Origin: an uncultured Actinomycetes bacterium
GTDB taxonomy: Bacteria > Actinomycetota > UBA4738 > JBBDTT01
Direction: 5' to 3'
NCBI GenBank assembly: GCA_963742735.1
Contig: CAVUMN010000003.1
Span: 320,001 to 384,000, forward strand
Length of the DNA stretch: 64,000 bases
The number at the start of each line of letters is the position of its first letter. Position 1 is the stretch's first letter. The notes under the pieces were generated by a model that made no database searches, was not told the origin of the DNA, and worked only from the letters and a program-made list of their open reading frames with translations. A program made the position numbers and the translations under genes. Of the stretch, positions 17,546-30,501 are shown one piece after another.

Positions 17546-20395
17546 ATGTCCCAGGTTGCTCGCATGCCACGGCCCAGGCGGCGATGGCCCGTCATCGCGA
17601 TCTCCGGTGGTGTCGGAGCCCTGATCGTCCTCGGCGGCCTGTCGGGCTTCTACACCAACCTCCTGTGGTTCAGGGAGGACGCGAAGCTCTCGTCCGTCTT
17701 CTGGGGGGTGTTCTGGTCCAAGGCCGTGCTGATCGCCGTCTTCGGCGCGGTGTTCTTCGCGCTGCTCTACGCGAACCTGCTGATCGTCAAGCGCTTCGCC
17801 CCCCGCTACCGCCTCTTCTCGCCCGAACAGGAGGTCGTCGACCGGTTCAAGGGGCAGATCGATCCGTACATGAATTGGTTGCTCCCGGGCGTGTCGCTGC
17901 TGTTCGCCGCGTTCGCCGCGCTCGGGGTCACCGGCCTGTGGGAGCGGTTCCTGCTGTGGCGCCACGGCGGGGAGGTCGCGTTCGGGCAGATCGACCCCCT
18001 GTTCGGTCGCGATCTCGGGTTCTACGTCTTCAAGCTGCCGTTCCAGCACTTCGTGCAGAGCTGGCTGTTCTCGTCGCTGGTCGTGATCACCATCGTCACC
18101 GCGGTCGCCTACTACCTGTGGGGCGGCATCCGGTTCCAGGCGATCGGCGAGAAGGTCACGCCGACGGTCAAGGCCCACCTATCGGTACTCCTGGGAATCA
18201 TCGTGCTCGTCAAGGCTTGGGGATACCGGCTGGGGCAGTTCGACCTGCTCACCTCCGAGCGAGGGGTGGTGACGGGCGCGTCCTATACCGACGTCAAGGC
18301 TCAGCTGCCGGCCCTTCGCATCCTGGTCCCGATCGCGATCGTGTGCGCCGTGCTGTTCCTGGTGAACATCAGGTTCCGTGGCTGGGCCCTGCCCGCCATC
18401 GGGATCGGGCTTCTGGGGCTGACCTCGATCATCGCCGGCGGCGCGTACCCGGCCTTCGTCCAGAACTTCCAGGTCAAGCCGCAGGAGCTGCAGCGGGAGT
18501 CCGAGTACATTGATCGAAACCTGGAGTTCACCAACCGCGCCTACGGGCTGGACGGGATCAAGACCAGCCCGTTCCAGGTCGACGAGGACCTCACGGCCCA
18601 GGAGGTGCAGGACAACCCCGCCACGATCAGCAACATCCGGCTGTGGGATCCGCTCACGCTCCAGCGCGGGTTCCGCCAGCTCCAGCAGATCAAGCCCTAC
18701 TACACGTTCGACGACGTCGACGTGGACCGGTACACGCTCGAGAACGGGCAGCGCCGGGTGGTCATGGTCTCCGGCCGGGAGATCCAGCAGTCGGGGGTGC
18801 CCGCCGCGAACCAGTCGTGGCAGAACCTGCACCTGTTCTACACGCACGGGTACGGATACGTGGCCAGCCGGGTCGACCGGGTGACGTCCGAGGGGCAGCC
18901 CGACTTCGTGGTGAAGGACATCCCTCCGGCCTCGGTCCCCAGCGAGGACTTCGAGGTGACCGAGCCCCCCGGACCGAGGATCTACTTCGGCGAGCACGAC
19001 GACGAGGAGTTCGTCGTGGCCCGCACCGGGCAGGAGGAGTTCGACCGGCCGGAGGGCACCGGACAGGGCGAGGATGCCACCGTCGTCTACGAGGGCGACG
19101 GGGGCGTCGAGGTCGGTGGGTTCTTCCGGAAGCTCGCCCTGGCGTGGAGGTTCCGCGACGTGAACCTGCTGATCTCGGGCCTGATCAAGCCGGACTCCAA
19201 GATCATGTACCACCGCACCATCCGGGACCGGGTCGAGAAGGTCGCGCCCTTCCTGAAGTTCGACCACGACCCCTACATGGCGGTGGTCGACGGCCGGCTC
19301 ACCTGGATCTGGGACGCTTACACCCACTCCAACGAGTACCCGTACTCACAGCGCCTGGAGCTGCAGAACGTGTCCGACCTCGAGGGTGAGGTCAACTACC
19401 TTCGCAACTCCGTGAAGGTGACGATCGACGCCTACGACGGGACGTTGCGGTTCTACGTGATCGACCCGACGGATCCGGTCATCCAGGCGTGGCAGGCCGC
19501 CTTCCCGGACCTGTTCACCCCGGACGAAGAGGTCAGCCCGAACCTGCGGGAGCACTTCCGCTACCCCGAGGACCTGTTCAAGATCCAGGCCGCGCAGTAC
19601 GCGCAGTACCACGTGCAGAGCGCGACCGACTTCTACTCCGGCCGCGACTTCTGGGCCCTGCCTCAGGATCCCGACCCGACGAAGACGAACGCCGAGACCC
19701 TCGACCCCTACTACGTGCTCATGCGGCTCCCGGGGGAGGAGCAAGAGGAGTTCGTGCTGTTCATCCCGTTCACCCCCAACGACCGCCCGAACATGATCGC
19801 CTGGTTCGCCGCCAAGTCCGACCCCGAGGGCTACGGGGAGCTCACCGCGTTCGACTTCCAGGCGGGCCAGAGCATCGACGGCCCGAAGCAGGTGTTCCAG
19901 CGGATCAACGCCGACACGGAGGTGTCGCGGGAGCGGACGCTGCTCGGGCAGAGCGGCTCCAACGTCCTCTTCGGGAACCTCCTGACGATCCCCATCGAGA
20001 ACTCGTTCCTGTACGTCCAGCCGATGTACATCGAGGCCAGTTCGAGCTCGGACCAGCAGGGCGCCATCCCGGAGCTCAAGCGGGTCATCCTCGTCCACGG
20101 AGAGACGGTGACCATCGCCGAGACGCTGCAGGAGGCCCTCGAGGCGTCGTTCGGCGAGGGCGGCGAGGAGCCTCCGCCGGAGGAGCCGGGTGTCGACCAG
20201 ACGATCCAAGAGCTCCTCCAGGAGGCTCTGCAGCACTTCCGCAACGCCGAGCAGGCCCTGCGTGACGGCGACCTGGCCGAGTACCAGACCGAGCTGGCCG
20301 CGGCCCGCGCCGCGGTCGAGGAGGCCGCGCAGCGCTCCGCGGAGGCCTCGGGCGAGGAGCCGGCGCCCACCCCGACCGCTTCCCCGAGCGGCTGA
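17546..20395 (+). CDS. UPF0182 family membrane protein
   Basis: DPLFGRDLGFYVF, NIRLWDP, YTHGYG and HFRYPEDLF motifs; next to tRNA-Met as in other actinobacteria. Confidence 0.93.
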   Translation: MSQVARMPRPRRRWPVIAISGGVGALIVLGGLSGFYTNLLWFREDAKLSSVFWGVFWSKAVLIAVFGAVFFALLYANLLIVKRFAPRYRLFSPEQEVVDRFKGQIDPYMNWLLPGVSLLFAAFAALGVTGLWERFLLWRHGGEVAFGQIDPLFGRDLGFYVFKLPFQHFVQSWLFSSLVVITIVTAVAYYLWGGIRFQAIGEKVTPTVKAHLSVLLGIIVLVKAWGYRLGQFDLLTSERGVVTGASYTDVKAQLPALRILVPIAIVCAVLFLVNIRFRGWALPAIGIGLLGLTSIIAGGAYPAFVQNFQVKPQELQRESEYIDRNLEFTNRAYGLDGIKTSPFQVDEDLTAQEVQDNPATISNIRLWDPLTLQRGFRQLQQIKPYYTFDDVDVDRYTLENGQRRVVMVSGREIQQSGVPAANQSWQNLHLFYTHGYGYVASRVDRVTSEGQPDFVVKDIPPASVPSEDFEVTEPPGPRIYFGEHDDEEFVVARTGQEEFDRPEGTGQGEDATVVYEGDGGVEVGGFFRKLALAWRFRDVNLLISGLIKPDSKIMYHRTIRDRVEKVAPFLKFDHDPYMAVVDGRLTWIWDAYTHSNEYPYSQRLELQNVSDLEGEVNYLRNSVKVTIDAYDGTLRFYVIDPTDPVIQAWQAAFPDLFTPDEEVSPNLREHFRYPEDLFKIQAAQYAQYHVQSATDFYSGRDFWALPQDPDPTKTNAETLDPYYVLMRLPGEEQEEFVLFIPFTPNDRPNMIAWFAAKSDPEGYGELTAFDFQAGQSIDGPKQVFQRINADTEVSRERTLLGQSGSNVLFGNLLTIPIENSFLYVQPMYIEASSSSDQQGAIPELKRVILVHGETVTIAETLQEALEASFGEGGEEPPPEEPGVDQTIQELLQEALQHFRNAEQALRDGDLAEYQTELAAARAAVEEAAQRSAEASGEEPAPTPTASPSG

Positions 20396-20406
20396 TAGAC
20401 TCGCTC

Positions 20407-20480
20407 TGCGGGGTGGAGCAGTCAGGTAGCTCGCTGGGCTCATAACCCAGAGGTCACAGGTTCAAATCCTGTCCCCGCGA
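20407..20480 (+). tRNA. tRNA-fMet (CAT), initiator type
   Basis: Cloverleaf; CTGGG-CTCATAA-CCCAG anticodon arm with 3 consecutive G-C pairs; GTTCAAATC T-loop; weak U1-G72 pair; CCA not encoded. Confidence 0.95.
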
Positions 20481-20484
20481 CAAA
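20439..20484 (+). repeat. attL core (46 bp)
   Basis: CTCATAACCCAGAGGTCACAGGTTCAAATCCTGTCCCCGCGACAAA, identical to 29792-29837. Confidence 0.95.
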
Positions 20485-20554
20485 GGAAACCGCAGGTCAG
20501 AGCGCCTGCGAGCGGATAGCCGGCCCTCGGAGACCACGGTCCCGGGGGCCGATC

Positions 20555-20572
20555 TGCAAACAGATTGCAAAC
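20555..20572 (+). promoter_or_regulatory. Putative integrase arm-type sites (TGCAAAC x2, 11-bp period)
   Basis: Same pair and spacing recur at 29655-29672 near attR. Confidence 0.6.
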
Positions 20573-20585
20573 GAGGCGGGGAGCG

Positions 20586-21203
20586 GTGGAGATCTGGGAG
20601 CTTTTGGGCGCGCTCCTGGTGGGGTTCATCCTCGGGGCATACGAACGCGGCCGAACGCTCGAAATCGCCGTGGCGGTCCAGAAGCTCGAGCGGCAACAAC
20701 AGGCTCTACTCCGGGCCCGCGAGAGGCTTAGGGAGCTACTCGCCACCTTTGGCCGCGACGCCCAATCGGATCCGCGATTCGGACTGAAGGGACAGCCGGA
20801 TCGAGAATGGCTAGCAGCCAAGGATGCCCAACTCGCCCGGCTAAGGGAGTGGTGGAGGGGCTGGGTCGATGAGACGGAGCTGGCCGTTTATGACGACCAA
20901 CTGCTGGCCCGAGTGCATGGAGTCATGGGAGAAGGCAGGGCGCGTCGTCGCTACCCGCTTCTCTGGGAAGCCCAGGATTCCCTCGCGCTCTATTCGCTCA
21001 AGCCTGATGTGGTCTCTGCCTCGCTGGCCAATCGACACCTTGAGTTGGCGATGATCGCGCTTGGATACATCGAGGATTTCGTCAAACAGGCGATCCGAAG
21101 GATGGAGCCTCCAAGCCGCAGAGGGGGGCTGGCCTCCGCGCTGATGCTCTGGACACGGCGAGCGTGGCGACGCCTTGATACGTGGCTTAGCTCCTCCCGC
21201 TGA
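20586..21203 (+). CDS. Hypothetical cargo protein with N-terminal TM helix
   Basis: ~205-aa ORF; WELLGALLVGFILGAY hydrophobic stretch followed by a helical region. Confidence 0.6.
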   Translation: MEIWELLGALLVGFILGAYERGRTLEIAVAVQKLERQQQALLRARERLRELLATFGRDAQSDPRFGLKGQPDREWLAAKDAQLARLREWWRGWVDETELAVYDDQLLARVHGVMGEGRARRRYPLLWEAQDSLALYSLKPDVVSASLANRHLELAMIALGYIEDFVKQAIRRMEPPSRRGGLASALMLWTRRAWRRLDTWLSSSR

Positions 21204-21218
21204 CGCCAGTCGTCCGAC

Positions 21219-22448
21219 CTACGCCTCGAGGATCATCGTGGCAACTCGGTTGGCTGCCTCCTCCTGAAGTCCCGCGATCGCGTGCGAGTACGTGTCCAGC
21301 GTGATGGAGACCGTCGCATGGCCGAGGCGCTCGCTTACGACCTTGGGATGAACGCCGGCGGCGAGGGCTGCCGTCGCGTAGGAGTGGCGCAGGTCGTGGA
21401 GTCTGATCCGGGGGAGCCCCGCGCCGCGAGCGTGACGGAGGAACTGATCGGCGAACGCCTCCGGGTGGATCAGGGAACCGTCCTCGCGGGTGAACACAAG
21501 GCCCGAGTCCTGCCACGCCGGGCCCCATGCCATCCGCTCCTCAAGCTGGCGCTTGCGGTGCTCCCGCAGGCCGGCGACGGTGGCGGGGTCGAGGGCGAGC
21601 TGGCGGCGGCCCTTGCTGGTCTTGGGCTCTGAGGTCGCGGGCTTGCCGTCCACAACCACGAGCGTCTGTGTGATGGCCGTGCGGCCCGCGTCAAGGTCCA
21701 CGTCCTGCCAGCGCAGCCCAAGGGCCTCGCCCCGGCGCATGCCGGTTGTGGCCAGCAGCAGCCACGCCCCGTAAAGCCGATCCTCCCGAACGTGGCCGAG
21801 GAACTGGCGCAGCTCGGGCGGAGCCCAGACGTTCATCTGGCGGCGTCCAACGCGGGGAGGGTCCGCAACCTCTGCGACGTTGCGAGTCACGCGCCCCCAG
21901 CGGAGCGCGTCCGAGAGCGCCTTGTGGATCACAACGTGAATGTTCCGGGCGGTCTTGGGGGAGAGGCCCTGGCCGTCGCGGCGTCCGTTGGCGAGCAGCC
22001 GGCCGTAGAACCCGTTGAGCGCGGCGGGGGAGAGCTTCTGCAAGGGCAGCGCACCCAGGGCCGGCACAACGTGCTTGTTGATATTCACGCGGTAGCTGGC
22101 CAGCGTGGTGGCCCGGACGGTGGACTCGATCGCGGGCAGCCACTCCTCGAGGAGAAACTGCCCGAACGTGACCCGGCTCGGGGGGATGTACGTCCCGCGG
22201 TTCAGGCGGCCGAGGATCTCGGGGAGCTCCTGCTGCGCCTCCCGCCGAGTCGGGAATCCGCCGTGCCATTGCTGGCGGCGCTCGTCCCGATCGGGGAGCA
22301 AGGCGGCTCCGCAGCGGGCGCAGTCATCGCGCCGGCCGTCCGCCGTCCAGTACCGGGTGCGGCAGGCAGGGCAGGACCGGGCGGGCTGGCGGCCCACGTC
22401 CACCACCACGGCCCAGGTGCTTCCGCGCTTCCGAACGTGACCCCTCAT
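21219..22448 (-). CDS. int: Tyrosine recombinase/integrase
   Basis: TGMRRGEALGLRW, RLHDLRHSYAT and VSERLGHA..TLDTYSH; N-terminal arm-binding domain. Confidence 0.95.
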   Translation of the reverse strand: MRGHVRKRGSTWAVVVDVGRQPARSCPACRTRYWTADGRRDDCARCGAALLPDRDERRQQWHGGFPTRREAQQELPEILGRLNRGTYIPPSRVTFGQFLLEEWLPAIESTVRATTLASYRVNINKHVVPALGALPLQKLSPAALNGFYGRLLANGRRDGQGLSPKTARNIHVVIHKALSDALRWGRVTRNVAEVADPPRVGRRQMNVWAPPELRQFLGHVREDRLYGAWLLLATTGMRRGEALGLRWQDVDLDAGRTAITQTLVVVDGKPATSEPKTSKGRRQLALDPATVAGLREHRKRQLEERMAWGPAWQDSGLVFTREDGSLIHPEAFADQFLRHARGAGLPRIRLHDLRHSYATAALAAGVHPKVVSERLGHATVSITLDTYSHAIAGLQEEAANRVATMILEA

Positions 22449-23086
22449 GACTTTGCCTTTCGCTTGCGGCCGGGCTTTGACCCGGCGGCCCTTCCGCGGC
22501 TCGTGGGGGGGAGCAGGCCCATTGCTCGGGCCCGTGCCACCCACTTGGCTGCGGCTGATTTGCTGACGTGGCCCCACTCCGCGACCCGGGCCGTTGGGTT
22601 CTTGAGGCCCGCCTTGAACGCTTCGGAGTAGACCCGGGCCACCTCGCGGAAGTGATCCGAGCCCAACGCGGGCGGCCGTCCAGGCTTGTTGCGGCGTGGG
22701 GTAGCGGCGAGGGCCCGCAAGGGCTTATCGGCGGCGAGCTGCTCTTGCCCGCTGCCGTGCTCGGAAACGTCGAGCAGATGCTCCGCGTACAACTCGAGCC
22801 GCTTGTCGATCAGCTCGGCGAGGGGCAGCTCGCGCTTGGTCGTCGCGGTCAGCCGGCGGAGGTCGCGGTCAGGGTGCCCCTTTGGCCTGCCATCCCGATC
22901 TGTATCGAAGGATCGAAGATCCAGCCCGACGCACTCCATCCGGCCATCGAGCTCGGCGAACCAGAGCGTTACGACCCACGGCCCCTTCCCGGGGTGCGGC
23001 CACAGGAACGAATCGCGCAGCCTGGGCACCTTGCTCATGCGTCGGGCCCGCTGGCTGTGGTACTCGAAGGTGCCCTCCTCGTTCAC
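22445..23086 (-). CDS. DUF6214-like DNA-binding protein (C-terminal HTH)
   Basis: GRPP..FREVARVYSEA..NPTARVAE..SKSAAAKWVARARAMGLL pattern; ATGA-coupled to the integrase. Confidence 0.65.
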   Translation of the reverse strand: MNEEGTFEYHSQRARRMSKVPRLRDSFLWPHPGKGPWVVTLWFAELDGRMECVGLDLRSFDTDRDGRPKGHPDRDLRRLTATTKRELPLAELIDKRLELYAEHLLDVSEHGSGQEQLAADKPLRALAATPRRNKPGRPPALGSDHFREVARVYSEAFKAGLKNPTARVAEWGHVSKSAAAKWVARARAMGLLPPTSRGRAAGSKPGRKRKAKS

Positions 23087-23210
23087 CCCCGCAGTCTATC
23101 CCGAGCGGGAACGCTTAGGCAACACGTTCCCTGAATATCCCCCTTGTTTGTGCTCGGAATTAGGGGTAAGGCGTTGTCAGAGCGTTCCCTAACCCCTACC
23201 GTGCCGAGGC

Positions 23211-23438
23211 ATGGACGACGAACTGATGCAGGTGTCGAGGGCTCGGGCTCTGGTGAGCAGCGGGGCCGCTCGCTCGGTGCGGTTGGGCGCACGTCTCTCA
23301 CTCTGGGAGCTGGCAGGGCAGATCGGATGCGCGCCCTCCACGGTCCTCCGGTGGGAACGGGGCGATCGCATTCCGCGGGGCGGCCTGGCTGTGCGCTACG
23401 TCGAAGCCCTGGACACGCTGATGAAGGCCGCCCAGTGA
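23211..23438 (+). CDS. XRE-family HTH regulator (Cro-like)
   Basis: LSLWELAGQIGCAPSTVLRWERG. Confidence 0.8.
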   Translation: MDDELMQVSRARALVSSGAARSVRLGARLSLWELAGQIGCAPSTVLRWERGDRIPRGGLAVRYVEALDTLMKAAQ

Positions 23439-23656
23439 AGGCTCTCGAGGACTACCCCCTGGTGATGCGGCCCGAGGAGGTCGCCGAGGCCCTTCGCTGC
23501 GGGCGGTCCTCGGTCTATGAAGCCATCCGCCGGGGGGACATTCGAGCAGTGCGCCTTGGCCGTCGCGTGCTGGTTCCCAGGGCCGCGCTGGAGGAGCTTC
23601 TGGGTATCCAGGGAGCGGCGCAGCCGGCTTCGGTTTCCGAGGAGAGTGGGGCATGA
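23435..23656 (+). CDS. Excisionase-family DNA-binding protein (HTH_17)
   Basis: MRPEEVAEALRCGRSSVYEAIRRGDIRAVRLGRRVLVP; GTGA overlap. Confidence 0.85.
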   Translation: MKALEDYPLVMRPEEVAEALRCGRSSVYEAIRRGDIRAVRLGRRVLVPRAALEELLGIQGAAQPASVSEESGA

Positions 23657-24036
23657 CGGAGCCGGGCGACGTGCTCGCCGAGGTCATCAGCTTCCGCCGG
23701 GCCGCTCGGGCCATCGTCCGCGACGCATCGCTGGACAGGCACCAGAAGTACGCAGCCCTGATGCGACTGGCGATCCTCGCCCGTACCGAGGCTGCATTCC
23801 CGCGAGCGGCGCAGGGAGTCGTCGCTGATGAGGCGATCCCGCTACTGCATCCCGGGATGCATCCGGCACCGATCGACCCGGCAGAGCGGGAAGCGCGGCG
23901 ACTTCGCGCCCAAGGCTACGGGAGCTGCCCGACGTGCCTCCGGTCGCTTCCCACGAACGCCGAGCTTGACCGGTGGAGGCGGCTGGCGGAGGACGCTGCG
24001 ATGCGAGCGGCTCGCCGGGAGGCTCTGGTTCCGTGA
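23653..24036 (+). CDS. Hypothetical protein (CPTC motif)
   Basis: Coupled by ATGA/GTGA overlaps on both sides. Confidence 0.6.
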   Translation: MTEPGDVLAEVISFRRAARAIVRDASLDRHQKYAALMRLAILARTEAAFPRAAQGVVADEAIPLLHPGMHPAPIDPAEREARRLRAQGYGSCPTCLRSLPTNAELDRWRRLAEDAAMRAARREALVP

Positions 24037-25328
24037 GCTCCACCGAAACCGAGCTGCTCGACCGGGTGAAATCGAACCTGCCCCCGGCCGTGCTCCCTGC
24101 CCCCGAGGGCTGGCCACGGCTGGACCCGGCCGCCCGGTACGGGCTGGCGGGCGAGTTCGTCGCAACCGTTGAGCCACACACGGAGGCGGACGCGGTTGGG
24201 CTGCTGGTGGACTTCCTCACCGCGTTCGGCTCCGCCGTTGGCCCTGGCCCTCACGTCGAGGCAGACGGCGCTCGCCATGCCGGCGCACTGTTCGCCCTCC
24301 TGGTGGGCAACACAAGCCGGGCTCGGAAGGGAACTGCCCGGAAGCAGGTCGCTCGGTTCTTCGAGGGGGCGGATGCGGCCTGGGCGACGGGATGCGTCAA
24401 GGGCGGCCTGGCGTCGGGCGAGGGACTGGTGGCCGCGCTCCAGGATCCGCCAGAGGGCGAGGGCCGGCGAGACCCCCGCCTGCTTCTGGTTGAGGAGGAG
24501 TTCGCCCGCCTCTTGGCCGCTGCCGGGCGTGAGGGCTCAACGCTGAGCCACGTTGCACGCCAAGCCTGGGATGGCGGCCCGATCGCGGTGCTCACCCGCA
24601 AGGACCCGCTGAGCGCTTCGCCGAGTCACGTCTCGCTGATTGGCCACGTCACCGAGGAGGAGCTGCGCCGGCGACTGAGCTCGACCGAGGCCGCGAACGG
24701 GTTCGGCAACCGTTTCCTGATCGTCTTGGTACGGCGCTCAAAGCTGCTGCCGAGCGGGGGCCGGCCTGCCGAGGGGGACTTTGTTCGCCTGGTTCGCTTT
24801 ATTCGCAACCGGTTGGAGGACGCCAGGAGACACACGCTGATCCAGCGCTCTCCCGATGCGGAGGGGTTGTGGGCGGACCTGTATCGAAGGATGGCCGCCG
24901 AGGATGAGCCCGGGATGGTGGGCGCACTTCTCGCCCGTGACTCCGCCCAGCTCCTCCGCCTTTCTCTGGTGTACGCGCTTACCGATGCCTCTCCGACGAT
25001 CGAGGTCCCGCACCTAGAAGCGGCTTGGGCCCTGTGGCAGTACTCGGCGGAATCGGTGCGGCACATCTTCGGGACCGTGCTGGGGGACGAGACCGCCGAT
25101 CGGCTGTACGCGGCGATCCTGGAGATGGGGGCAAAGGGCCTCGATGGAAAGGGGCAGCACGCCGCGTACGGCCGGCATGTTGACGGGGCGGAACTCGACC
25201 GGGCCCGGGCCGAGCTTGAGGAGCGCGGCCTGATCGTGACGCTCAACGTGGACACGGGTGGCCGGCCCCGCCTGGTCTCCTACGCGAAAGAAGCGAATAA
25301 AGCGAAAGAAGGTCCCCGTGGCCCGTGA
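24033..25328 (+). CDS. DUF3987/YfjI-like P-loop protein (putative replication helicase)
   Basis: YGLAGEFV..PHTEAD, LVGNTSRARKG, SGEGL, EEEFA, AWDG and NGFGNRF motifs. Confidence 0.75.
   Translation: MSSTETELLDRVKSNLPPAVLPAPEGWPRLDPAARYGLAGEFVATVEPHTEADAVGLLVDFLTAFGSAVGPGPHVEADGARHAGALFALLVGNTSRARKGTARKQVARFFEGADAAWATGCVKGGLASGEGLVAALQDPPEGEGRRDPRLLLVEEEFARLLAAAGREGSTLSHVARQAWDGGPIAVLTRKDPLSASPSHVSLIGHVTEEELRRRLSSTEAANGFGNRFLIVLVRRSKLLPSGGRPAEGDFVRLVRFIRNRLEDARRHTLIQRSPDAEGLWADLYRRMAAEDEPGMVGALLARDSAQLLRLSLVYALTDASPTIEVPHLEAAWALWQYSAESVRHIFGTVLGDETADRLYAAILEMGAKGLDGKGQHAAYGRHVDGAELDRARAELEERGLIVTLNVDTGGRPRLVSYAKEANKAKEGPRGP
25284..25310 (+). repeat. Three tandem 9-mers GCGAA(A/T)(G/A)AA, iteron-like
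   Basis: GCGAAAGAA GCGAATAAA GCGAAAGAA at the 3' end of the DUF3987-like gene. Confidence 0.5.
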
Positions 25329-25482
25329 GGCTGACATTGCCGAGTTCGAGGCAGCGCTAGAGCGCGGCGTGGTGGAGTTCGCAGAGCTTGCCGCCCAGGG
25401 CGACTGGGGGCGTGCTGAGACACAGCTCGGCGTGGTGTTTGGAATCGCCTGGCTCGTGAGCGCGTACGCCGATCGTGCGTGA
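25318..25482 (+). CDS. Small hypothetical protein
   Basis: GTG start overlapping the DUF3987-like gene end; 54 aa, helical. Confidence 0.4.
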   Translation: MAREADIAEFEAALERGVVEFAELAAQGDWGRAETQLGVVFGIAWLVSAYADRA

Positions 25483-25752
25483 GAGCTCCCAGGCCAAGGG
25501 CCGGCGCTACCTACCCGAGGGCCCGGCGGTATGTCCGAACGGCGGGGCCCGGCGGTATTCGAGAATCCGGGCGCTTCAAGCGCTACGACCTGCCCGTTTT
25601 CGGGCCTGCCCAGGAATGAGCGACCAGGGATTCTGGATCGGAGTGGCAAGCGAGGCGGCGGAGGATGCCGAGCAGCGTTGAGGAAGTCAAGGCGGGCGCT
25701 TCTTGCCAGGTGCACCGGAACCATTGACATGTCTCGCGGCAGAGGCGTACAA

Positions 25753-26202
25753 ATGAGCTTGGTGAAAAGCGCTCTGGCAGGCGGAAAGAGATCGATCCTC
25801 GTTGCCGCTTTCTTGCTCGCGGTCGTCGGCTTTGCGGCAGTGCTAACTGCTAGCGGGGGGGCGGAGGACTCGTCGGGCCTCGACTGCCCCGATGGATTTC
25901 GTAACACAGCGGTCTTCGAGCAAGGGGCTGAGTACGCCCCGTCGCCGGAAGATTCCGTGATGCGGACTGAAATACTTACGCAGCTGTTTGACCTACCACC
26001 GCAGGAGCGCCGCATGGGTACTGGCGGATCCGCTCGAGGCGGTATCGTCCGCTCAGACAACCGAGGCAGGCCGGACCGGGCTTCCTTTCAAGTCTTCCTG
26101 GACTCAAAGCCGCGTGCTTTGGTGACTTCAGTTCTCGTGGAGCCTGGCAAATGGCGTGTTACCACCGTTGAGTACTGCCCAAGCGCGGGTTCCTCCGACT
26201 GA
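25753..26202 (+). CDS. Secreted/membrane-anchored hypothetical protein
   Basis: KRSILVAAFLLAVVGFAAVL signal/anchor; two Cys near the ends of the soluble domain. Confidence 0.6.
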   Translation: MSLVKSALAGGKRSILVAAFLLAVVGFAAVLTASGGAEDSSGLDCPDGFRNTAVFEQGAEYAPSPEDSVMRTEILTQLFDLPPQERRMGTGGSARGGIVRSDNRGRPDRASFQVFLDSKPRALVTSVLVEPGKWRVTTVEYCPSAGSSD

Positions 26203-26203
26203 C

Positions 26204-26986
26204 ATGAACCCCAACATCGCCCCGCTTGATGCGAATGGCAAACGAGTGTGGCGGGGCCTTGAAGGACTTACCGTATTTGCGTGGGCGATCCTTCTGGCCT
26301 TTGGCCCCGTCACGATGGCCTATGCCCATTCAGTAGATCAATTCTGGGGTCCCGAGTGGGCAAACCAGGATAGGGGAACAAGCAAGCAGCATTTTTCGGT
26401 GACCGAAGAGGTCCCCGGAACGACGTCTTCCGCGACTTGGCCCCTGCGCGTCTACCAAGGGTCAGTAAGGTGGAACAACGTAGACATCGTCGATCCGGAC
26501 ATGTCATTCGGCGTAAAAGCCGCCATCGTCGCCAACTACAGCCCTTACAATCATTGCGGCTCGGACTACTTCTTTGAGAACGGCATGCACTACCGTGATG
26601 TCGCCGGGGACTCTTTGGCCGTGACGATCGTTTGCACCCAGAACACGATTTGGGGAGACCAGATTCGCAACTACCAAATGGTCTTCGACCCCAATGCCAC
26701 TACGTGGTACACCGGATCGGACCCCGATGCGGTGCCGTCCGGCTCAATGGATTTGATATACGTCGCTTCTCACGAGTTCGGCCACGCCGCTGGTGGCTGG
26801 AGCGATGACACTCCTGGCGGTCACTATGACTCGGCCAACAACAGCTTACTTTGCGGCATAGGTGTACCGGTGATAGATAGGCACACGATGTGCGCTTCAG
26901 CGACAGCCGGGCGGACGCTTGACTCGAGGGCGCTCGAGTATCACGACGTCGACGTTTTCATCGAGGTCTACGATTTCGGCGGTTAG
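26204..26986 (+). CDS. Secreted zinc metalloprotease (matrixin/metzincin-like)
   Basis: Signal peptide (AYA-HS); MDLIYVASHEFGHAAG...H; HTMC Met-turn candidate. Confidence 0.7.
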   Translation: MNPNIAPLDANGKRVWRGLEGLTVFAWAILLAFGPVTMAYAHSVDQFWGPEWANQDRGTSKQHFSVTEEVPGTTSSATWPLRVYQGSVRWNNVDIVDPDMSFGVKAAIVANYSPYNHCGSDYFFENGMHYRDVAGDSLAVTIVCTQNTIWGDQIRNYQMVFDPNATTWYTGSDPDAVPSGSMDLIYVASHEFGHAAGGWSDDTPGGHYDSANNSLLCGIGVPVIDRHTMCASATAGRTLDSRALEYHDVDVFIEVYDFGG

Positions 26987-27134
26987 GCTGAGGTTCAGCG
27001 CTTCGGGGGATCCCGGCGAGTGCGGGTCGGACGCCACGCTGACGGCCAGGTAACGAATGACAGATCGTCGGGGATCCGGGCAGCAGCGCGTTACTCGCCC
27101 GCCTGAAGACCAGCCGAATGTAGCCGCCGAGCCT

Positions 27135-27548
27135 TCAGCCATCGGCGAGGATCTCCCTGACTCGAGCCTCGCCGAGATGCTTCTCGAGCGTTTCTAGACG
27201 CCGCTGCCGATCCTTCTGCTCCCGCTCCCACTCCTCCCACCACTCGTCGAATTGGTCGCGTAGCACCTCCGAGCCCGGTTCGGTGCGCGGTGGGCTGGCC
27301 TCCTTCGCCACCGGCCCCAAGACACGCTCTAGAACCGTGGTAGCGGCGCGCAGACGGAGGCGCGGGTCCTCCGCATCGAGCAGGTCCACGAGCGTGGTGG
27401 CGGCCTTGTCCGCGTGGAGCTCGAGCCGCTCGAGGGTTTCCCCGATCCGATCTAGCCGGCGGCGTTCACGCTCGGCCGCACCAAGGACACCGTTCGCTTT
27501 GGGATCGGGACCGTCCGGGGAGCCGAAGGGCTTGCCTCGCACGGCCAC
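27135..27548 (-). CDS. Terminase-small-subunit-like protein (copy 2)
   Basis: KPFGSPDGPDP...KAATTLVDLLDAEDPRLRLRAATTVLERVLG pattern; coiled-coil tail. Confidence 0.45.
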   Translation of the reverse strand: MAVRGKPFGSPDGPDPKANGVLGAAERERRRLDRIGETLERLELHADKAATTLVDLLDAEDPRLRLRAATTVLERVLGPVAKEASPPRTEPGSEVLRDQFDEWWEEWEREQKDRQRRLETLEKHLGEARVREILADG

Positions 27549-27567
27549 CTGTCCGTTGCCGCTGTCG

Positions 27568-27963
27568 CTAATGGGGCCCCTCCGCTTGTTCGTGGGCTTC
27601 CATCTCGGCCAGCAGTTCGTCTACACGGCGGGAGAACTCGCCACGGGAGGTGTGCTCGATGTGCTGGTCGGCCTGGCCTATGGCCTGCTCAACTAGCCAC
27701 CGGGCGTTCTGGGTGCGGATGGACCACGCCTCTTCGCCTTTGCGGGTGGCCCCCTTGATGGCCTCGAGGATGGTCTGGACAGCGCGAGGGGCGTTGAGGA
27801 TCAGGGCTTGGCGGGTCTGGTCACGTCGCTGCTCGAGCCGGCGCTCCCTCACCTCGGTGGCTTTCCTGGCAGCCGCTACAGGATCGGGTCCGTCAGGCTG
27901 ACCGAACCGGGTTCTAGAGCCCGCGTCACGCGGTCTGACCTGCTCATTCGCGGAGGCTCCCAC
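27568..27963 (-). CDS. Terminase-small-subunit-like protein (copy 1)
   Basis: TRFGQPDGPDPVAAARKA...RAVQTI...NARWLVEQAIGQADQHIEHT; GTG 6 nt after TACGAT. Confidence 0.5.
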   Translation of the reverse strand: MGASANEQVRPRDAGSRTRFGQPDGPDPVAAARKATEVRERRLEQRRDQTRQALILNAPRAVQTILEAIKGATRKGEEAWSIRTQNARWLVEQAIGQADQHIEHTSRGEFSRRVDELLAEMEAHEQAEGPH

Positions 27964-28132
27964 GGCTCGATCGTATGGCCGGGGGGCGTTTGCATCGCGT
28001 TTGCGAGCCCCGAACAAAGGCCCGTTTACCTGCGGTTATGGGGAACCCTCTGGGTTGCTCACCCACTAGTTTGAGGTCCCCATTGACCATGGCGGAACCA
28101 GCGGCCGAGGATGGGGGATCGCGGGGGGCAGT

Positions 28133-28504
28133 ATGAGGCAGTACACGCAAGAAGAGCACGAGGCAGTCAGCCGAGCGATGAAGGACTTCTTTCGCGAGGT
28201 GGCCTCGCGCTTCGAGCACGTGGCCTTCCGAGACGATCTTCCCGGGCCCAGTGGCGAGCCGGGGGGGATCATCGAGCTCCGCTGTGAGCTTCCGGGTACC
28301 AGTCGGATTGCGGCGCTCGTCGGCGCGGATCAGATCGACCTATACCTCGGTCAGAGGACTTGGTGGGAGTTCCTACCCAGGTGGAAGGATCGGGGTCCCG
28401 AGCGGATGATTGCCCGGGTTCGCAACGCCATCGAAGACGTCGTGGCCGGGCGATTCAAGGAACGCATTGGATCTCGGATCGTGCGATATGCCCCGTACAG
28501 ATAG
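28133..28504 (+). CDS. Hypothetical cargo protein
   Basis: 123-aa ORF with ATG start and globular-looking composition. Confidence 0.55.
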   Translation: MRQYTQEEHEAVSRAMKDFFREVASRFEHVAFRDDLPGPSGEPGGIIELRCELPGTSRIAALVGADQIDLYLGQRTWWEFLPRWKDRGPERMIARVRNAIEDVVAGRFKERIGSRIVRYAPYR

Positions 28505-28539
28505 CTGATCGCGGAGGGACTATTGCGACTCGGCCACGC

Positions 28540-29088
28540 ATGAGAAAGCGAATCGGATCGGTGAGCCTCGCTCTTCTGGTCGCGTGCTCTGGCCCGGACA
28601 GTCCTCCCCAAGCCGAGCCCAGCGCCGCGCCGGCCAGTCCCTCCCCATCACCAGCGGTAGCGCTCTTGGACTTGGGGCAGGAGGGCAGCACAGCTGGCGG
28701 GACGCGAGTGACCGTCTACTCGGTCGCCCCCTCGAGTCGGAATGGCTACTCGCCACCGAGCGGGAGCACATGGCGCATCGCGGACACCAGGCTTTGCGCC
28801 TCGCTAGAGCAGCCTGGCCAGATCGGAGTGGGGCTGGTGGCGAGCTCGCAGTTCGTCGCCGAGAGTGCGGACGGGAGTTCCTACGCGGTGGACAGCGCCG
28901 GCGTTCTGTCGAACGAGCTGATGGCGCAACCCACACGGCTGCTCGATCCGGGCGAGTGCATCCGGGGACTGTTGGTGTTCGCTCTCCCGGCGCGGACGCC
29001 AGTTGCATCCGTTGTGTTCCTGGCAGCCAGCAGCCCCGATCCAGGCTCCGGCCTAACCGCGGCGATGAGGTGGCTCGTGCCGCGCTGA
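28540..29088 (+). CDS. DUF4352-like lipoprotein
   Basis: Lipobox LVAC; Pro/Ser linker; LDPGECIRGLLVFALP motif. Confidence 0.65.
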   Translation: MRKRIGSVSLALLVACSGPDSPPQAEPSAAPASPSPSPAVALLDLGQEGSTAGGTRVTVYSVAPSSRNGYSPPSGSTWRIADTRLCASLEQPGQIGVGLVASSQFVAESADGSSYAVDSAGVLSNELMAQPTRLLDPGECIRGLLVFALPARTPVASVVFLAASSPDPGSGLTAAMRWLVPR

Positions 29089-29128
29089 ACCGAGGGCCCG
29101 CCGTCGCTTTTCGCCCGCTTTTTCGCCA

Positions 29129-29640
29129 GTCAAAATGGCCCCCGCTCGGCCAGGGTCACCCATTTTGACCTGCGGTTTCTGTTGAGCCGGGCTCCAACGG
29201 ACCTGGCCCCGCTAGACCGATGCTTCTAGCATGCTGACCTGCGCTTTCCCCCCAGTTTCGGCCCAGTTCCGCGCCACCGAACTGGATATTGGGGTGGGGC
29301 CCCCTGCACGCCCCGCGTCACGCGGCCTGACCTGCGGTTTTTGGGAGAACGCTTCTACCGTTCTGACCTGCGGTTTTCATGGGGCTTGGCTTCATCCGAG
29401 CGACCTGCAACAACCCGCCCCCAAGCCGTGGATGATCCACGCTGACCTGCGGTTTTGGGTCGCCGGGGCGTCATGCGATGAACCCTTCCGACCTGCGGTT
29501 ATCCCGTGGCCCCCCCCTACCCGCCGGTTCTACCGGTCTGACCTGCGGCTTTCGTGTGTCGTGGGCCCCCAACCCCCGTGCTTGTGAGGCACTAGGCTTT
29601 CGAGCGATGATCGTTCGTGACCTGCGGTTTTTGGGTCGCC
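29129..29640 (+). repeat. Array of 9 'variable hairpin + (T)GACCTGCGGTTT' units
   Basis: Motif starts at 29166, 29235, 29328, 29364, 29401 (partial), 29443, 29489, 29539 and 29618, all on +, each preceded by an inverted repeat. Confidence 0.85.
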
Positions 29641-29654
29641 GATCCCGCCGTCGA

Positions 29655-29672
29655 TGCAAACGCTCTGCAAAC
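29655..29672 (+). promoter_or_regulatory. Putative integrase arm-type sites (TGCAAAC x2)
   Basis: Matches the pair at 20555-20572. Confidence 0.6.
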
Positions 29673-29791
29673 GAACGCCGCACGTTCAAGCCTCGGCGAG
29701 ACGGACGGGGGTGGACAGGACGAGATGTGTTCCCGCACGGCCCAGCACGGGGCCGGACGCGACCTAGCTTGAGCGGACAGCGATCAGCAAA

Positions 29792-29837
29792 CTCATAACC
29801 CAGAGGTCACAGGTTCAAATCCTGTCCCCGCGACAAA
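29792..29837 (+). repeat. attR core (46 bp, tRNA 3' fragment)
   Basis: Identical to 20439-20484. Confidence 0.95.
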
Positions 29838-29876
29838 CGCGAAGCCGCAGGTCACGCACCTGCGGCTTCTCGCGTT
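29836..29876 (+). terminator. Hairpin, probably the original tRNA terminator displaced by integration
   Basis: AACGCG-AAGCCGCAGGT-cacgc-ACCTGCGGCTT-ct-CGCGTT. Confidence 0.6.
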
Positions 29877-29933
29877 GAAGGGGCGAATCCCCGGAGTCCG
29901 CGGCGGGTATGAACCAGGGAGGAGGTGGTCGTC

Positions 29934-30176
29934 GTGGCCGATCTCAGCCCCAAGCAGCGAGCACGGATCCCGAGCAAGAAGTTCGGGCTTCCCGAGAAGG
30001 CGCGCACGCCCGACGCCAAGAAGGAATCCGGCAACTACCCGATACCCGACCGTAAGCACGCGGTGAGCGCCAAGGGCCGTGCCAAGGCTCAGCTCAAGCG
30101 CGGAAACCTCACCAAGGACCAGTACGAGCGCGTGGTTCGCAAGGCGGACCGGGTCCTGAAGAAGGACGGCGCTTAG
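29934..30176 (+). CDS. Small basic protein, DUF6582-like
   Basis: LSPKQRARIPSKKFGLP...YPIPDRKHAVSAKGRA; GGAGG RBS. Confidence 0.7.
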   Translation: MADLSPKQRARIPSKKFGLPEKARTPDAKKESGNYPIPDRKHAVSAKGRAKAQLKRGNLTKDQYERVVRKADRVLKKDGA

Positions 30177-30203
30177 CCCGAACGGGCTGGTCCCAGACCC
30201 ACC

Positions 30204-30230
30204 AGGAAGGGGCGCTCGGCGCCCCTTCCT
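30204..30230. terminator. GC-rich hairpin after the DUF6582-like gene
   Basis: AGGAAGGGGCGC-tcg-GCGCCCCTTCCT, perfect 12-bp stem. Confidence 0.55.
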
Positions 30231-30501
30231 CCCGTTTGATCCCTTCTGTGCCTCCCGACCCCCCTGCTTACGGGCCATTTTTCTCCCGGGAGGGCGTATC
30301 CCTCGTGCTCCCGCGGCGCTTTGACGGAATAAGAAAGTCGGTTGCCGAAGGGGACTTCCCTACGGCCCGAGTCGAGAGGTCTGTTCGTATGACGGAAGCG
30401 TGGTCCCGAGTACTCGCAGCGGGGGTCGGTTTCTGCTACCGTCCGGCCTCGAGCGGGCGAGGACCCGGACGGCTCCGCGTCCCCGATGGGAGGTGTTCGG
30501 T

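Follow-up and report, generated by a model that had tools for sequence, protein, structure and literature searches.

The integration host factor IHF has binding sites in both the attP (H') and the cosB (I1) of phage lambda, and IHF sites also occur in the BIME/RIP elements at operon ends in E. coli. Actinobacteria, to our knowledge, lack IHF, and we know of no cluster of IHF sites that approaches nine tandem copies. In the actinophages MooMoo, TM4, L5, Giles and Aminay the cos region is bordered by an HNH gene on the right and by terS-terL on the left. Certain phage satellites (P4, and cos-type PICIs such as SaPIbov5) carry the cos site of their helper. How does the array described here, nine units near one end of a small integrated element in an uncultured member of the Actinomycetes, compare with these systems? 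Like the lambda IHF sites, its motif is short and asymmetric and is found beside an att core and arm repeats, beside the terminase-proximal repeats of cos, among iterons and in host 3' intergenic regions; unlike them, it is unrelated to the IHF consensus and has no named binder. The motif is common to the array and the cos regions of all five actinophages, which have 1–4 copies about 20–350 nt from the end, sometimes with GCAAAC and a G/C-run palindrome. Unlike those regions, the element has no terminase, HNH or virion genes and no recognizable cleavage site, and it has nine copies, most of them preceded by a dyad. Like the cos-bearing satellites, it is a small integrative element with an integrase, a repressor-like HTH protein, a helicase of its own, no capsid genes and a packaging-type sequence near its end; unlike them, it has no recognizable capsid-remodelling or terminase-small-subunit gene and no known helper, and its host is uncultured. 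Our preferred reading, which we hold tentatively, is that the array is a site platform for a conserved actinobacterial factor and serves a satellite-like element, most likely in packaging by a helper phage.

The window, by which we mean the whole 64,000-nt stretch of DNA that was analyzed, contains a 9.35-kb element integrated in the 3' part of a tRNA-Met (CAT) gene (20407..20481, + strand; found by ARAGORN, Rfam tRNA score 65.3 bits), which we read as initiator-type from the GGG/CCC pairs of its anticodon stem. A 46-bp att core is present as an exact direct repeat at attL (20439..20484, +) and attR (29792..29837, +). Each arm has a direct repeat TGCAAAC-N4-TGCAAAC that is a candidate arm-type site for the integrase (20555..20572, +, in the attL arm; 29655..29672, +, in the attR arm), and an extra GCAAAC at 29787 abuts the attR core. 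Six of the seven TGCAAAC sequences in the window fall within the element, against an expectation of about 2.7 per 64 kb for both strands. Arm repeats also flank the cores of L5, Giles and PhluffyCoco. The core, the TGCAAAC pairs on both arms and an integrase with an Arm-DNA-bind_4 domain together make an attP-type anatomy.

The tyrosine integrase, with its arm-DNA-binding domain (21219..22577, – strand; PF00589, 3.5e-21; PF14659; PF14657), is followed by an Xre-type HTH regulator (23211..23438, +; Pfam HTH_3 and HTH_31, PHROG repressor families) and a DUF3987-family helicase (23973..25328, +; phrog_5311 helicase, 1.8e-8). The helicase protein itself has no Pfam match above the cut-off. PF13148 is present in many of the 120 homologs among the matches listed, with fusions to Prim-Pol, PriCT-1 or Toprim domains in some; the protein is probably the replication initiator or helicase of the element. 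Next come a low-GC cargo ORF, apparent as a GC dip, whose translation has a zinc-protease-like HEFGH motif (26156..26986, +; a weak Peptidase_M10 match, E = 0.034, is below the cut-off), two paralogous helical ORFs of 137 and 149 aa that align over a common FGxPDGPDP (27135..28017, –), and a putative lipoprotein gene with an LVAC lipobox in its translation (28540..29088, +; weak DUF4352 match, E = 0.089). A TerS-like identity for the paralogs was considered but not borne out: they have no family match, only seven relatives among 1.84 billion representatives, and a helical AlphaFold model of low confidence (pLDDT 63.7). The remaining ORFs of the element have no family match, and none of its ORFs was recognized as a capsid, terminase or FtsK/TraB-type gene. 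An integrase, a regulator, a replication module of its own, a size within about 8–15 kb and the lack of virion genes are the gene set of a satellite, from which we infer that the element may be one.

Searches for a helper were negative. The genome, which is 89% complete, gave no TerL or portal homolog in tblastn searches with proteins of motif-bearing phages, there was no homolog of the HNH packaging protein in element or genome, and no helper prophage was found. A BLAST of 29100–29840 against the phage collection returned the tRNA-Met att core as its sole match; the Arthrobacter phages that have this same core follow it with an ordinary hairpin that lacks the motif. The DUF3987 helicase is present in 5 of 294 genomes of the order. 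The two informative loci with a related helicase (G215, and G258, unpublished) have no motif array, and the repeats in G215 are coding ones of the beta-propeller type.

The array (29129..29640, +; 64% GC) lies at the element's right end and begins 40 nt past the end of the putative lipoprotein gene. It has nine co-oriented units, in each of which (CT)GACCTGCGGTTT comes after a variable dyad or hairpin. A pattern scan of the window found GACCTGCGGTTT exactly on the + strand at 29167, 29329, 29365, 29444 and 29619 and with one mismatch at 29236, 29490 and 29540; a partial copy, GACCTGCAACAA, is at 29402. The motif thus spans 29167–29630, with eight copies at one mismatch or fewer plus the partial one. 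At up to two mismatches the window has 16 matches against 4.6 expected, a number reached in none of 100 shuffles. A tenth, partial unit at about 27918–27942 repeats the hairpin of unit 3, CCGCGTCACGCGG, followed by TCTGACCTGC; with the inverted GCAAAC pair after it (27918..28005, +; repeat families D1 and I11) it is probably part of a divergent regulatory region. Within the array the sequence also contains a G/C-run palindrome, GGGGTGGGGCCCCC (29291..29304, +), which to the eye resembles those between the motif and the physical end in TM4, MooMoo, L100, L145, L594 and L5.

Single copies mark both att junctions. An exact inverted copy (20487..20498, –; AAACCGCAGGTCAGAG as read on the + strand) stands right after the reconstituted tRNA 3' end and runs into a small CGCAGG/CCTGCG dyad, an arrangement that also follows tRNA genes in other genomes and in the L5 attP. 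After attR, the native host hairpin of the tRNA target, AAGCCGCAGGTCA-CGC-ACCTGCGGCTT (29842..29868), consists of two inverted motif-like halves, with motif matches at 29842–29853 (–) and 29857–29868 (+). An earlier note on this DNA, made by inspection, had described a noncoding array of nine co-oriented copies without cas genes, in which a constant motif follows variable dyads, and had placed the motif at both att junctions. All of this holds, although its motif coordinates were one base too low: no ORF within the array shows a coding-like GC3 pattern or matches a family, and there was no match to any cas family.

The array differs from a CRISPR in having a constant part of 12–17 nt rather than 24–48 nt and spacings of 36–93 nt, besides the absence of cas matches. 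It differs from an integron attC array in that its units, at 36–93 nt, have no ORFs and the integrase is of the lambda type with an arm-binding domain. REP/BIME elements are like it in being extragenic, often between convergent genes, and in having in some copies a conserved short tail to a hairpin. Unlike them, the motif has only about 1–12 copies in a genome, keeps the tail constant and not the palindrome, and is strongly associated with att and cos; a Y1 transposase adjoins it at one locus only (L379).

What is the place of the hairpins? Five of nine units (11.7% at random) have a Watson-Crick stem of 5 bp or more that ends between –3 and +5 nt of the motif, and seven of nine (19.2% at random) have one of 6 bp or more when G-T pairs are allowed, with 20,000 random window positions as the baseline and search parameters picked after inspection of the data. 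The folding energy of the upstream segments is unremarkable: the 31-nt segments have a mean MFE of –7.1 kcal/mol against –8.1 for random segments of the window (P = 0.034 against mononucleotide shuffles), and the array taken whole is no more stably folded than its shuffles (z = –1.2 on the + strand, 0.0 on the – strand). The proposal that the + strand is the one that folds found no backing in energy since the – strand versions of the segments fold about equally well (mean –7.7 kcal/mol).

Two sub-families of units had been noticed before, and both are confirmed: identity is 83% over 40 nt between units 4 and 8 and 79% between units 6 and 9. They reflect a tandem duplication of about 175 bp, in which block 29338–29470 corresponds to 29513–29645, with a 79-nt spacing in each. 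Within the duplicated pairs the variation in the dyads is compensatory. The stems of units 4 and 8 (AGAACG/CGTTCT and GCCGGT/ACCGGT) and those of units 6 and 9 (GTGGA/TCCAC and CGAGCGA/TCGTTCG) differ in both arms and retain pairing, so that in two duplicated unit pairs the stems are kept by compensatory change. Sequence between motif and dyads has diverged to about 40% identity, whereas motif and dyads are conserved. This retention of differing dyads after duplication argues for a role of a folded single strand or a cruciform in the array.

This does not extend to the motif in general, as hairpins before it are enriched nowhere but in the array and some tRNA trailers. The idea that a hairpin regularly partners the motif was rejected: one adjoins 8 of 78 phage copies (9.6% at random), 10 of 116 genome copies (14.5%) and 12 of 117 viral copies (12.3%), and there is still no enrichment if the 3' arm is allowed to end inside the motif.

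The extended, 17-nt form of the motif, CTCTGACCTGCGGTTWT, occurs with at most one mismatch in 123 of 401 genomes sampled across the phylum; its reversed control gave one match among the matches listed. Of the genome records with exact matches, 78 of the 80 among the matches listed are Actinomycetota (taxon judged by eye). The motif is therefore not the private, undescribed repeat of the element that it had been taken for; it is dispersed through Actinomycetota genomes and phages, and the array is a multi-copy use of it. The suggestion in the earlier note that a host factor reads the motif fits this phylum-wide spread. A full-text search, mostly of papers from outside the subscription journals, returned no published description of the motif. 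Its one incidental match was an Int-attP primer for phiJoe, which contains CCGCAGGTCAGAGC (PMC5311408, primer table).

Phages place the motif at their ends. It is found on at least 119 viral contigs of 35–72% GC whose flanks are otherwise unrelated. In phages it lies about 17–110 nt from the right cos end, often between HNH and terminase genes, in 1–4 copies. In MooMoo, for instance, the HNH gene gp97 ends at 55079 and motifs follow at 55080–55090 and 55129–55139, with the physical end at 55178. The copies in TM4, Mufasa and Aminay are 17 to about 110 nt short of the right end. Four motif-like copies fall within the final 350 nt of L5, the last at 49 nt from its end, and an inverted pair sits about 57 nt before the end of Giles. 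A large terminase gene lies within 2.6 kb of the motif in 33 of 80 viral loci with flanks. Scans for three-copy patterns returned mostly periodic coding repeats (periods of 15–54 nt) and about a dozen true noncoding arrays; on phage contigs, non-periodic sets of three or four co-oriented copies lie between an HNH gene and the putative start of terS. GCAAAC accompanies the motif in phage cos regions (TM4, L5 as GTTTGC, L019 and L054) as it does in the element. Both orientations occur at equivalent positions, as in L071 and L100, which is easier to reconcile with a DNA site than with an RNA signal.

Other contexts in phages are attP and origin-like regions. In the L5 attP a motif-like site abuts the tRNA-Gly-type core, in the Giles attP the motif lies between arm repeats and core, and an integrase gene is about 100 nt from the motif in 5 of 80 viral loci. 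Genome copies, too, are found where an integrase gene adjoins a host gene (glnA, a CAP-domain gene). The motif is also found flanked by phage- or element-specific direct repeats, an iteron-like context, and in two viral loci near DnaA-box-like sequences.

Three identities for the motif were rejected. It is not a general feature of phages with HNH-dependent cos cleavage, as HK97, which we take to be the type phage for this mechanism, has no match better than two mismatches, the control level. Mimicry of 16S rRNA helix 45 (ACCTGCGGTT) was dropped, as actinobacterial 16S differs in this stretch and the motif is exact in actinophages. Finally, the start-associated sequences (SAS/ESAS) of cluster K phages differ from it in sequence and are limited to the right arm (PMC3203893).

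From the anatomy, distribution and contexts of the motif, which are matters of observation, we infer that a protein binds it, what kind of protein this may be, and that packaging is the process served. The array would be a nine-fold cluster of a recognition site with core CTGACCTGCGG and extended form CTCTGACCTGCGGTTWT. Actinobacterial phages and integrative elements put this site, in 1–4 copies, at places where large protein-DNA complexes form: beside cos ends, beside the arms of attP and in iteron-rich stretches upstream of replication genes. Actinobacterial chromosomes bear the same site after tRNA genes and between convergent genes. It may be recognized as double-stranded DNA by a conserved Actinomycetota factor, perhaps an accessory or architectural protein whose role, by analogy, would be like that of the IHF sites in lambda attP and cosB. 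On excision the resulting circle would have the array in its P arm, with the TGCAAAC arm repeats and the att core alongside. Its most likely use would be as a cos-like packaging region open to the terminase of a helper phage, the element being a phage satellite; it could alternatively assist assembly of an excision/integration complex or of a replication complex. The earlier note had listed a protein-loading platform for recombination or packaging among its proposals, and this is the one that the comparative data favor, with the motif at cos ends and in attP.

Several facts weigh against the platform. The known actinobacterial integration host factor, mIHF, reportedly binds without sequence preference (PMC3724605), and no binding protein can be named for the motif. 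For packaging in particular, searches of the 89%-complete genome found neither a helper prophage nor a terminase or portal, and there is no cos cleavage site to point to. Seen from the core, the array lies beyond the arm repeats, unlike the single attP copy of Giles or L5; two elements with related helicases lack an array, as HK97 lacks the motif; and a plain duplex-binding model leaves the compensatory maintenance of dyads in duplicated units without explanation. Host copies in tRNA trailers and between convergent genes, moreover, fit a function at transcription ends at least equally. A bolder form of the platform reading takes CTCTGACCTGCGGTTWT as a phylum-wide Actinomycetota signal for a conserved factor, on which phages, integrative elements and tRNA loci would all rely, and the nine structure-selected units as a sponge or super-site that would capture this factor, for packaging or to starve an infecting phage; this we regard as rather doubtful.

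Under a different reading, the nine units would stop or process transcripts that leave the last gene or enter from the host side, and so insulate the att/tRNA region. We consider this unlikely, though it is the likeliest of the rival readings. A unit would then be a copy of the tRNA-trailer module of the order (motif and variable hairpin, on the other strand). In chromosomes the motif lies 0–5 nt past tRNA 3' ends in 10 of 80 loci and between convergent genes in 31 of 62 classifiable loci. Downstream of tRNA-Gly(GCC) a strict copy is present in 6 of 30 genomes of the order (six of the 30 are unpublished), mostly with a variable hairpin directly after it, and about ten more have looser or inverted variants. 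In the host genome, seven of eight further copies (14-mer, at most one mismatch) are intergenic, some follow tRNA-Asn and tRNA-Gly genes, and there are only three tyrosine recombinase genes, so that the possibility of a generic dispersed repeat unlinked to mobile elements, which the earlier note had set as refuting, is borne out in part. Further points in favor of transcription ends are that the motif-like site in the L5 attP is the 5' arm of a terminator after the tRNA, that TM4 has copies in intergenic gaps of its structural operon, that the array starts so close behind a gene, and that its stems are kept by compensatory change.

One unit of nine also fitted an intrinsic-terminator scan, via an alternative stem. 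On the other hand, the T-run of the others is 8–11 nt from the stem, unlike intrinsic terminators. The motif occurs in both orientations relative to the upstream gene, and because hairpins are not generally enriched beside it the 17-mer cannot act only via a hairpin. Twenty motif-bearing loci gave no relevant Rfam match. Nine tandem terminators would have no obvious purpose, and the multi-copy arrays upstream of terS at cos would be left without explanation.

An origin is a less probable function still. In this case the units would be single-strand initiation signals (a hairpin and a priming or loading sequence) or loading sites for the DUF3987 helicase after excision. The fusions of helicase relatives to Prim-Pol, PriCT or Toprim suit this, as do the DnaA-box-like sequences in two viral loci and three Streptomyces loci in which the motif, amid iterons, is about 300 nt from a Prim-Pol gene. 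Selection for hairpins would suit a role as single-stranded DNA, and the motif contains two CTG triplets, CTG being the primase start site for E. coli DnaG. But the helicase gene lies 3.8 kb away, the array has neither element-specific iterons nor, at 64% GC, an AT-rich unwinding stretch, and cos ends and tRNA trailers are not origin contexts.

We think it very unlikely that the array is transcribed and acts as processed small RNAs or as an RNA or DNA decoy, a sponge titrating a factor that phages need, in a defense or interference device. Its copy number is high compared with phages (nine against 1–4), its stems are kept by compensatory change and, in our own comparison, the reverse complement of the motif resembles nucleotides 34–52 of initiator tRNA (CATAACC...AGGTC). 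The processed small-RNA array that had been proposed nevertheless fared poorly: there is no promoter-like site, no Rfam family and no exceptional fold, and no processing enzyme is encoded nearby. The Rfam 15 scan of 19500–30500 at E up to 1 matched the tRNA only, and a sigma-70-type promoter in the array was rejected, as none appeared in the scan and a manual check gave no consistent –10/–35 spacing.

Conjugative transfer fares no better, and we give it very little weight. The co-oriented 8–9-nt repeats would then be recognized by a TraB/FtsK-type translocase that a conjugative actinomycete element provides in trans, so mobilizing the small element, which has no transfer gene of its own. The anatomy does recall the clt loci of Streptomyces plasmids and AICEs, which Vogelmann and colleagues reportedly described in 2011 as noncoding, imperfect, co-oriented 8-bp repeats of the GACC type at irregular spacing, with inverted repeats. 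Unlike clt loci, however, the array belongs to an element without TraB (no FtsK/TraB gene was found among its ORFs), and the motif is phylum-wide and also in phages. TraB sites are plasmid-specific 8-mers, not a phylum-wide 17-mer, and such a site could not explain copies at cos ends and tRNA trailers.

That the units are non-functional, decayed duplicates of att sites or tRNA trailers left by tandem duplication and repeated integration is scarcely credible, for while the duplication of about 175 bp is evident and relatives have the motif within att repeats at tRNA-Gly, where partial tRNA copies reach through it, motif and dyads are conserved although identity in the intervening sequence has dropped to about 40%, the nine copies all point the same way, and no tRNA fragments accompany the units.

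If the site-platform reading is true, cos ends, attP sites and tRNA trailers would have one 17-nt signal in common throughout the phylum, from Streptomyces and the mycobacteria to gut Coriobacteriia, and this would offer a direct way to the sequence-specific accessory factor still missing for site-specific recombination and DNA packaging in actinobacteria. In actinophage genomes the motif could serve to annotate cos and att regions, and the element would count as a candidate for a phage satellite in a lineage with very few known. Even if the array is only a stack of terminators, the conservation of the motif stays an unexplained and testable observation.

The array (29129-29640) was found as the earlier note had described it, with the motif copies, the inverted copy at attL and the hairpin beside attR all present. 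Eight plus-strand matches to GACCTGCGGTTT, none with more than one mismatch, and one partial copy lie at 29167-29630; they begin 40 nt past a lipoprotein gene and stop 150 nt short of attR. Besides these nine copies the array holds GCAAAC repeats and a GGGGTGGGGCCCCC run. The inverted exact copy (20487-20498) lies directly past the tRNA at attL, and the native host hairpin beyond attR (29842-29868) has two motif-like halves.

The source contig (C3) belongs to a 3.08-Mb genome (70% GC, five contigs, 89% complete) whose family has only two genomes in the collection. The final 43 nt of its tRNA-Met gene (20407-20481; initiator-type anticodon stem), plus 3 nt of trailer, are repeated exactly at 29792-29837, and the 9.35-kb insert between the two copies of this 46-bp direct repeat is lower in GC (66% overall, with a dip to 56%). 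Its genes include one for a tyrosine integrase (21219-22577, minus strand), which has an arm-binding domain, and one for an Xre-type HTH protein (23211-23438). A third product, of 451 aa (23973-25328), has matches in PHROG families of helicases and primases; among its 120 listed homologues, DUF3987 is present in many, and fusions to Prim-Pol, PriCT-1 or Toprim domains occur in some. The other ORFs, all without family, are a HEFGH metalloprotease-like protein, two paralogous helical proteins, a 123-aa ORF and the lipoprotein. Capsid, portal, terminase and FtsK/TraB genes were looked for in the element and none was found; TerL and portal proteins of motif-bearing phages gave no tblastn match in the entire genome.

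The metalloprotease-like cargo ORF (26156-26986, plus strand, 56-60% GC) has a signal- or transmembrane-like N-terminus and a HEFGHAAG zinc-metalloprotease-type motif, and matches Peptidase_M10 weakly, below the cut-off. The two paralogues, which lie side by side (137 and 149 aa; 27135-28017, minus strand), have in common an N-terminal FGxPDGPDP, then long helices; they have only seven relatives among 1.84 billion representative proteins, one of them named 'urease gamma subunit' by one source in what looks like a mis-annotation. A 10.4-kb element at a tRNA-Gln gene (locus L018, G215:C7), bounded by an exact 37-bp repeat (8044-8080, 18466-18502), carries a DUF3987-type helicase (40% identical) and a secreted protein of repeated beta-propeller-like units; a motif array was looked for there and is absent. 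Arthrobacter phage PhluffyCoco (L639; 19.6-19.9 kb) and about 40 of its relatives, also Arthrobacter phages, match the element's initiator-type tRNA-Met att core over 39 nt (92-97%), with ~33-nt direct repeats on both arms and an ordinary hairpin after the core; the phage records annotate no attP feature at these cores.

Each att-proximal arm has a TGCAAAC-N4-TGCAAAC direct repeat (20555-20572 and 29655-29672), and of the seven TGCAAAC copies in the window all but one are inside the element. By analogy with the core-flanking arm repeats of Giles, L5 and PhluffyCoco, these are likely integrase arm-type sites, in which case the GACCTGCGG array would be something else. An inverted GCAAAC pair occupies a divergent intergenic region inside the element (27988-28005), and GCAAAC repeats as a class are probably arm-type sites or an operator. 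Further GCAAAC-type copies are at 26630 (minus strand) and 29787, and several viral contigs, as well as TM4 and L5, have GCAAAC/GTTTGC alongside the main motif in their cos regions.

The motif proved not to be private to the element: copies occur in its own genome, in viral contigs and in genomes throughout the phylum. The own genome has 11 exact 12-mers, of which the element holds six; outside the element the 14-mer CTGACCTGCGGTTT has eight matches at up to one mismatch, seven of them intergenic, against none for the reversed control. This genome has only three tyrosine recombinase genes (the two high-scoring ones presumably Xer-type), so the copies outside the element do not mark the ends of further integrase-bearing elements. 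Scanning viral contigs for two nearby copies gave at least 42 loci, whose alignment yielded the longer consensus ggCTCTGACCTGCGGTTWTGc. At least 119 viral contigs contain the 17-mer; their GC content is 35-72% and the flanks are unrelated. Related contigs do not count as independent observations. At up to one mismatch the 17-mer is present in at least 123 of 401 genomes sampled across the phylum, five of the 401 being unpublished; the reversed control gave one among the matches listed. All collection-scan counts are lower bounds. Judging from record titles, we take 78 of the 80 listed exact-match genome records to be Actinomycetota, presumably including Streptomyces, Collinsella, Acidimicrobiia, Arthrobacter, Gordonia and Nocardioides; one of the two presumed exceptions is Loktanella. 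Because of this distribution, the low-GC motif-bearing viral contigs are probably phages of low-GC actinobacteria. No description of the motif was found in open-access papers and preprints.

Among 80 genome loci with flanks, 62 could be classified by neighbour gene orientation (six overlap a long coding-like ORF and 12 have no called gene on one side); the motif lies between convergent genes in 31, tandem genes in 23 and divergent genes in eight. Neighbours include the housekeeping genes glnA, guaA, dciA and rnpA, as well as integrases (two loci), Prim-Pol genes (three loci), HNH and toxin-antitoxin genes. In 10 of the 80 loci a tRNA 3' end is within a few nt of the motif, mostly as tRNA-NNNN-AAACCGCAGGTCAG. 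The tRNA-Gly(GCC) trailer carries the strict motif in six of 30 genomes of the window's order, a count that rests partly on six unpublished genomes among the 30 (G010, G283, G003, G258, G022, G028); in most of the six a differing hairpin follows directly, and about 10 more have looser or inverted variants. This module of motif plus variable hairpin is the array unit as read from the opposite strand. Partial tRNA-Gly copies a few kb away run through the motif, which is therefore part of att repeats there. In genome G000, two paralogous intergenic regions (C4:1111834 and C4:1171171) have the motif and, ~20 nt on, GATATAGC plus a second GCNATATYT repeat; what they share may be a regulatory region or else a small gene.

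In phages the motif recurs at cos ends and attP. Of 80 viral loci with flanks, 33 have a large terminase gene within 2.6 kb; these terminases form at least three sequence clusters, with representatives matching Terminase_6C, TerL_ATPase/nuclease or Terminase_6N. An integrase gene lies ~100 nt away in five of the 80, and phage-specific direct repeats surround the motif in many. In MooMoo, whose left end opens with terS-terL-portal, the last gene encodes an HNH endonuclease, and two copies take up the space from there to the right physical end. In TM4, Mufasa and Aminay, copies are found at 17 to ~110 nt from the right end, and TM4 has two further ones between genes of its structural operon. The Giles copies form an inverted pair ~57 nt from the end. 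The last 350 nt of L5 contain four motif-like copies with GTTTGC scattered among them; beyond the final copy, which is 49 nt from the end, comes a G/C-run palindrome. In other phage contigs, three or four copies in one orientation and at irregular distances lie in the interval from an HNH gene to a putative terS start; in seven related contigs the copies are 54, 54 and 65 nt apart, and L600 and L638 show the arrangement too. Orientation differs between homologous cos flanks (L071 versus L100), and HK97, an HNH-cos phage, was searched and has none. At the L5 attP a motif-like site adjoins the tRNA-Gly-type core and makes the 5' arm of the hairpin after it; at the Giles attP the motif lies between arm repeats and a tRNA-Pro-type core.

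Two contig groups deserve separate mention. In L082, L083, L086, L091, L093, L105, L109, L116 and others, the motif is set in a ~150-nt conserved non-coding unit (~50% GC) that also has a GTGAT-N6-ATCAC-like dyad and two small hairpins, and a TerL gene of the Terminase_6C type follows 165-540 nt downstream. The unit probably serves as cos or pac region in a single group of freshwater phages. In L078, L094, L111, L112, L168 and L176 (~45% GC) the motif is ~9 nt upstream of a promoter-like TTGACA-N17-TATGCT that precedes a small-ORF-TerL operon.

In its make-up the array comes closest to phage regions near cos that hold several motif copies, as in L5, and the gene set (integrase, regulator, own helicase, no virion or transfer genes) fits a phage satellite. 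We therefore put a cos-like packaging platform first: the array is a putative protein-binding platform overall, with packaging its leading, tentatively favoured use. The main rival, stacked tRNA-trailer or terminator-like modules that would insulate the att region, accounts better for the host contexts and the selected hairpins but worse for the cos arrays, and seems unlikely. An origin or priming region is less likely again; we regard an RNA or decoy array as quite improbable, a clt-like locus as a shade more so, and a non-functional duplication as the least probable reading of all.

The dyads that the earlier note placed before each copy are statistically real, though modest; their folding energy is ordinary for such GC-rich DNA. 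With search parameters picked after seeing the data, a Watson-Crick stem 5 bp or longer, ending no more than a few nt from the motif, occurs in five of nine units versus 11.7% of random positions, and a stem of at least 6 bp with G-T pairs allowed in seven of nine versus 19%. The whole array folds no better than shuffles on either strand, and hairpins adjoining the motif are not enriched over all genome and viral copies. The best evidence that the dyads matter is a ~175-bp tandem duplication within the array (units 4-6 versus units 8-9), in which the motif and a few flanking bases are kept and the interior sequence has drifted apart; the stems of each duplicated unit pair are altered on both arms and still pair.

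The motif site is 17 bp long and independent of orientation and of hairpin. It is found beside att cores that have arm repeats and cos ends that have terminase-proximal repeats, among iterons preceding replication genes, and in host 3' intergenic DNA. IHF sites in E. coli and lambda show the same pattern, and by this likeness we take the motif to be the putative site of a conserved actinobacterial DNA-binding factor. For mIHF, no sequence preference is reported (PMC3724605). In the element, the array of such sites would act as a cos-like packaging platform.
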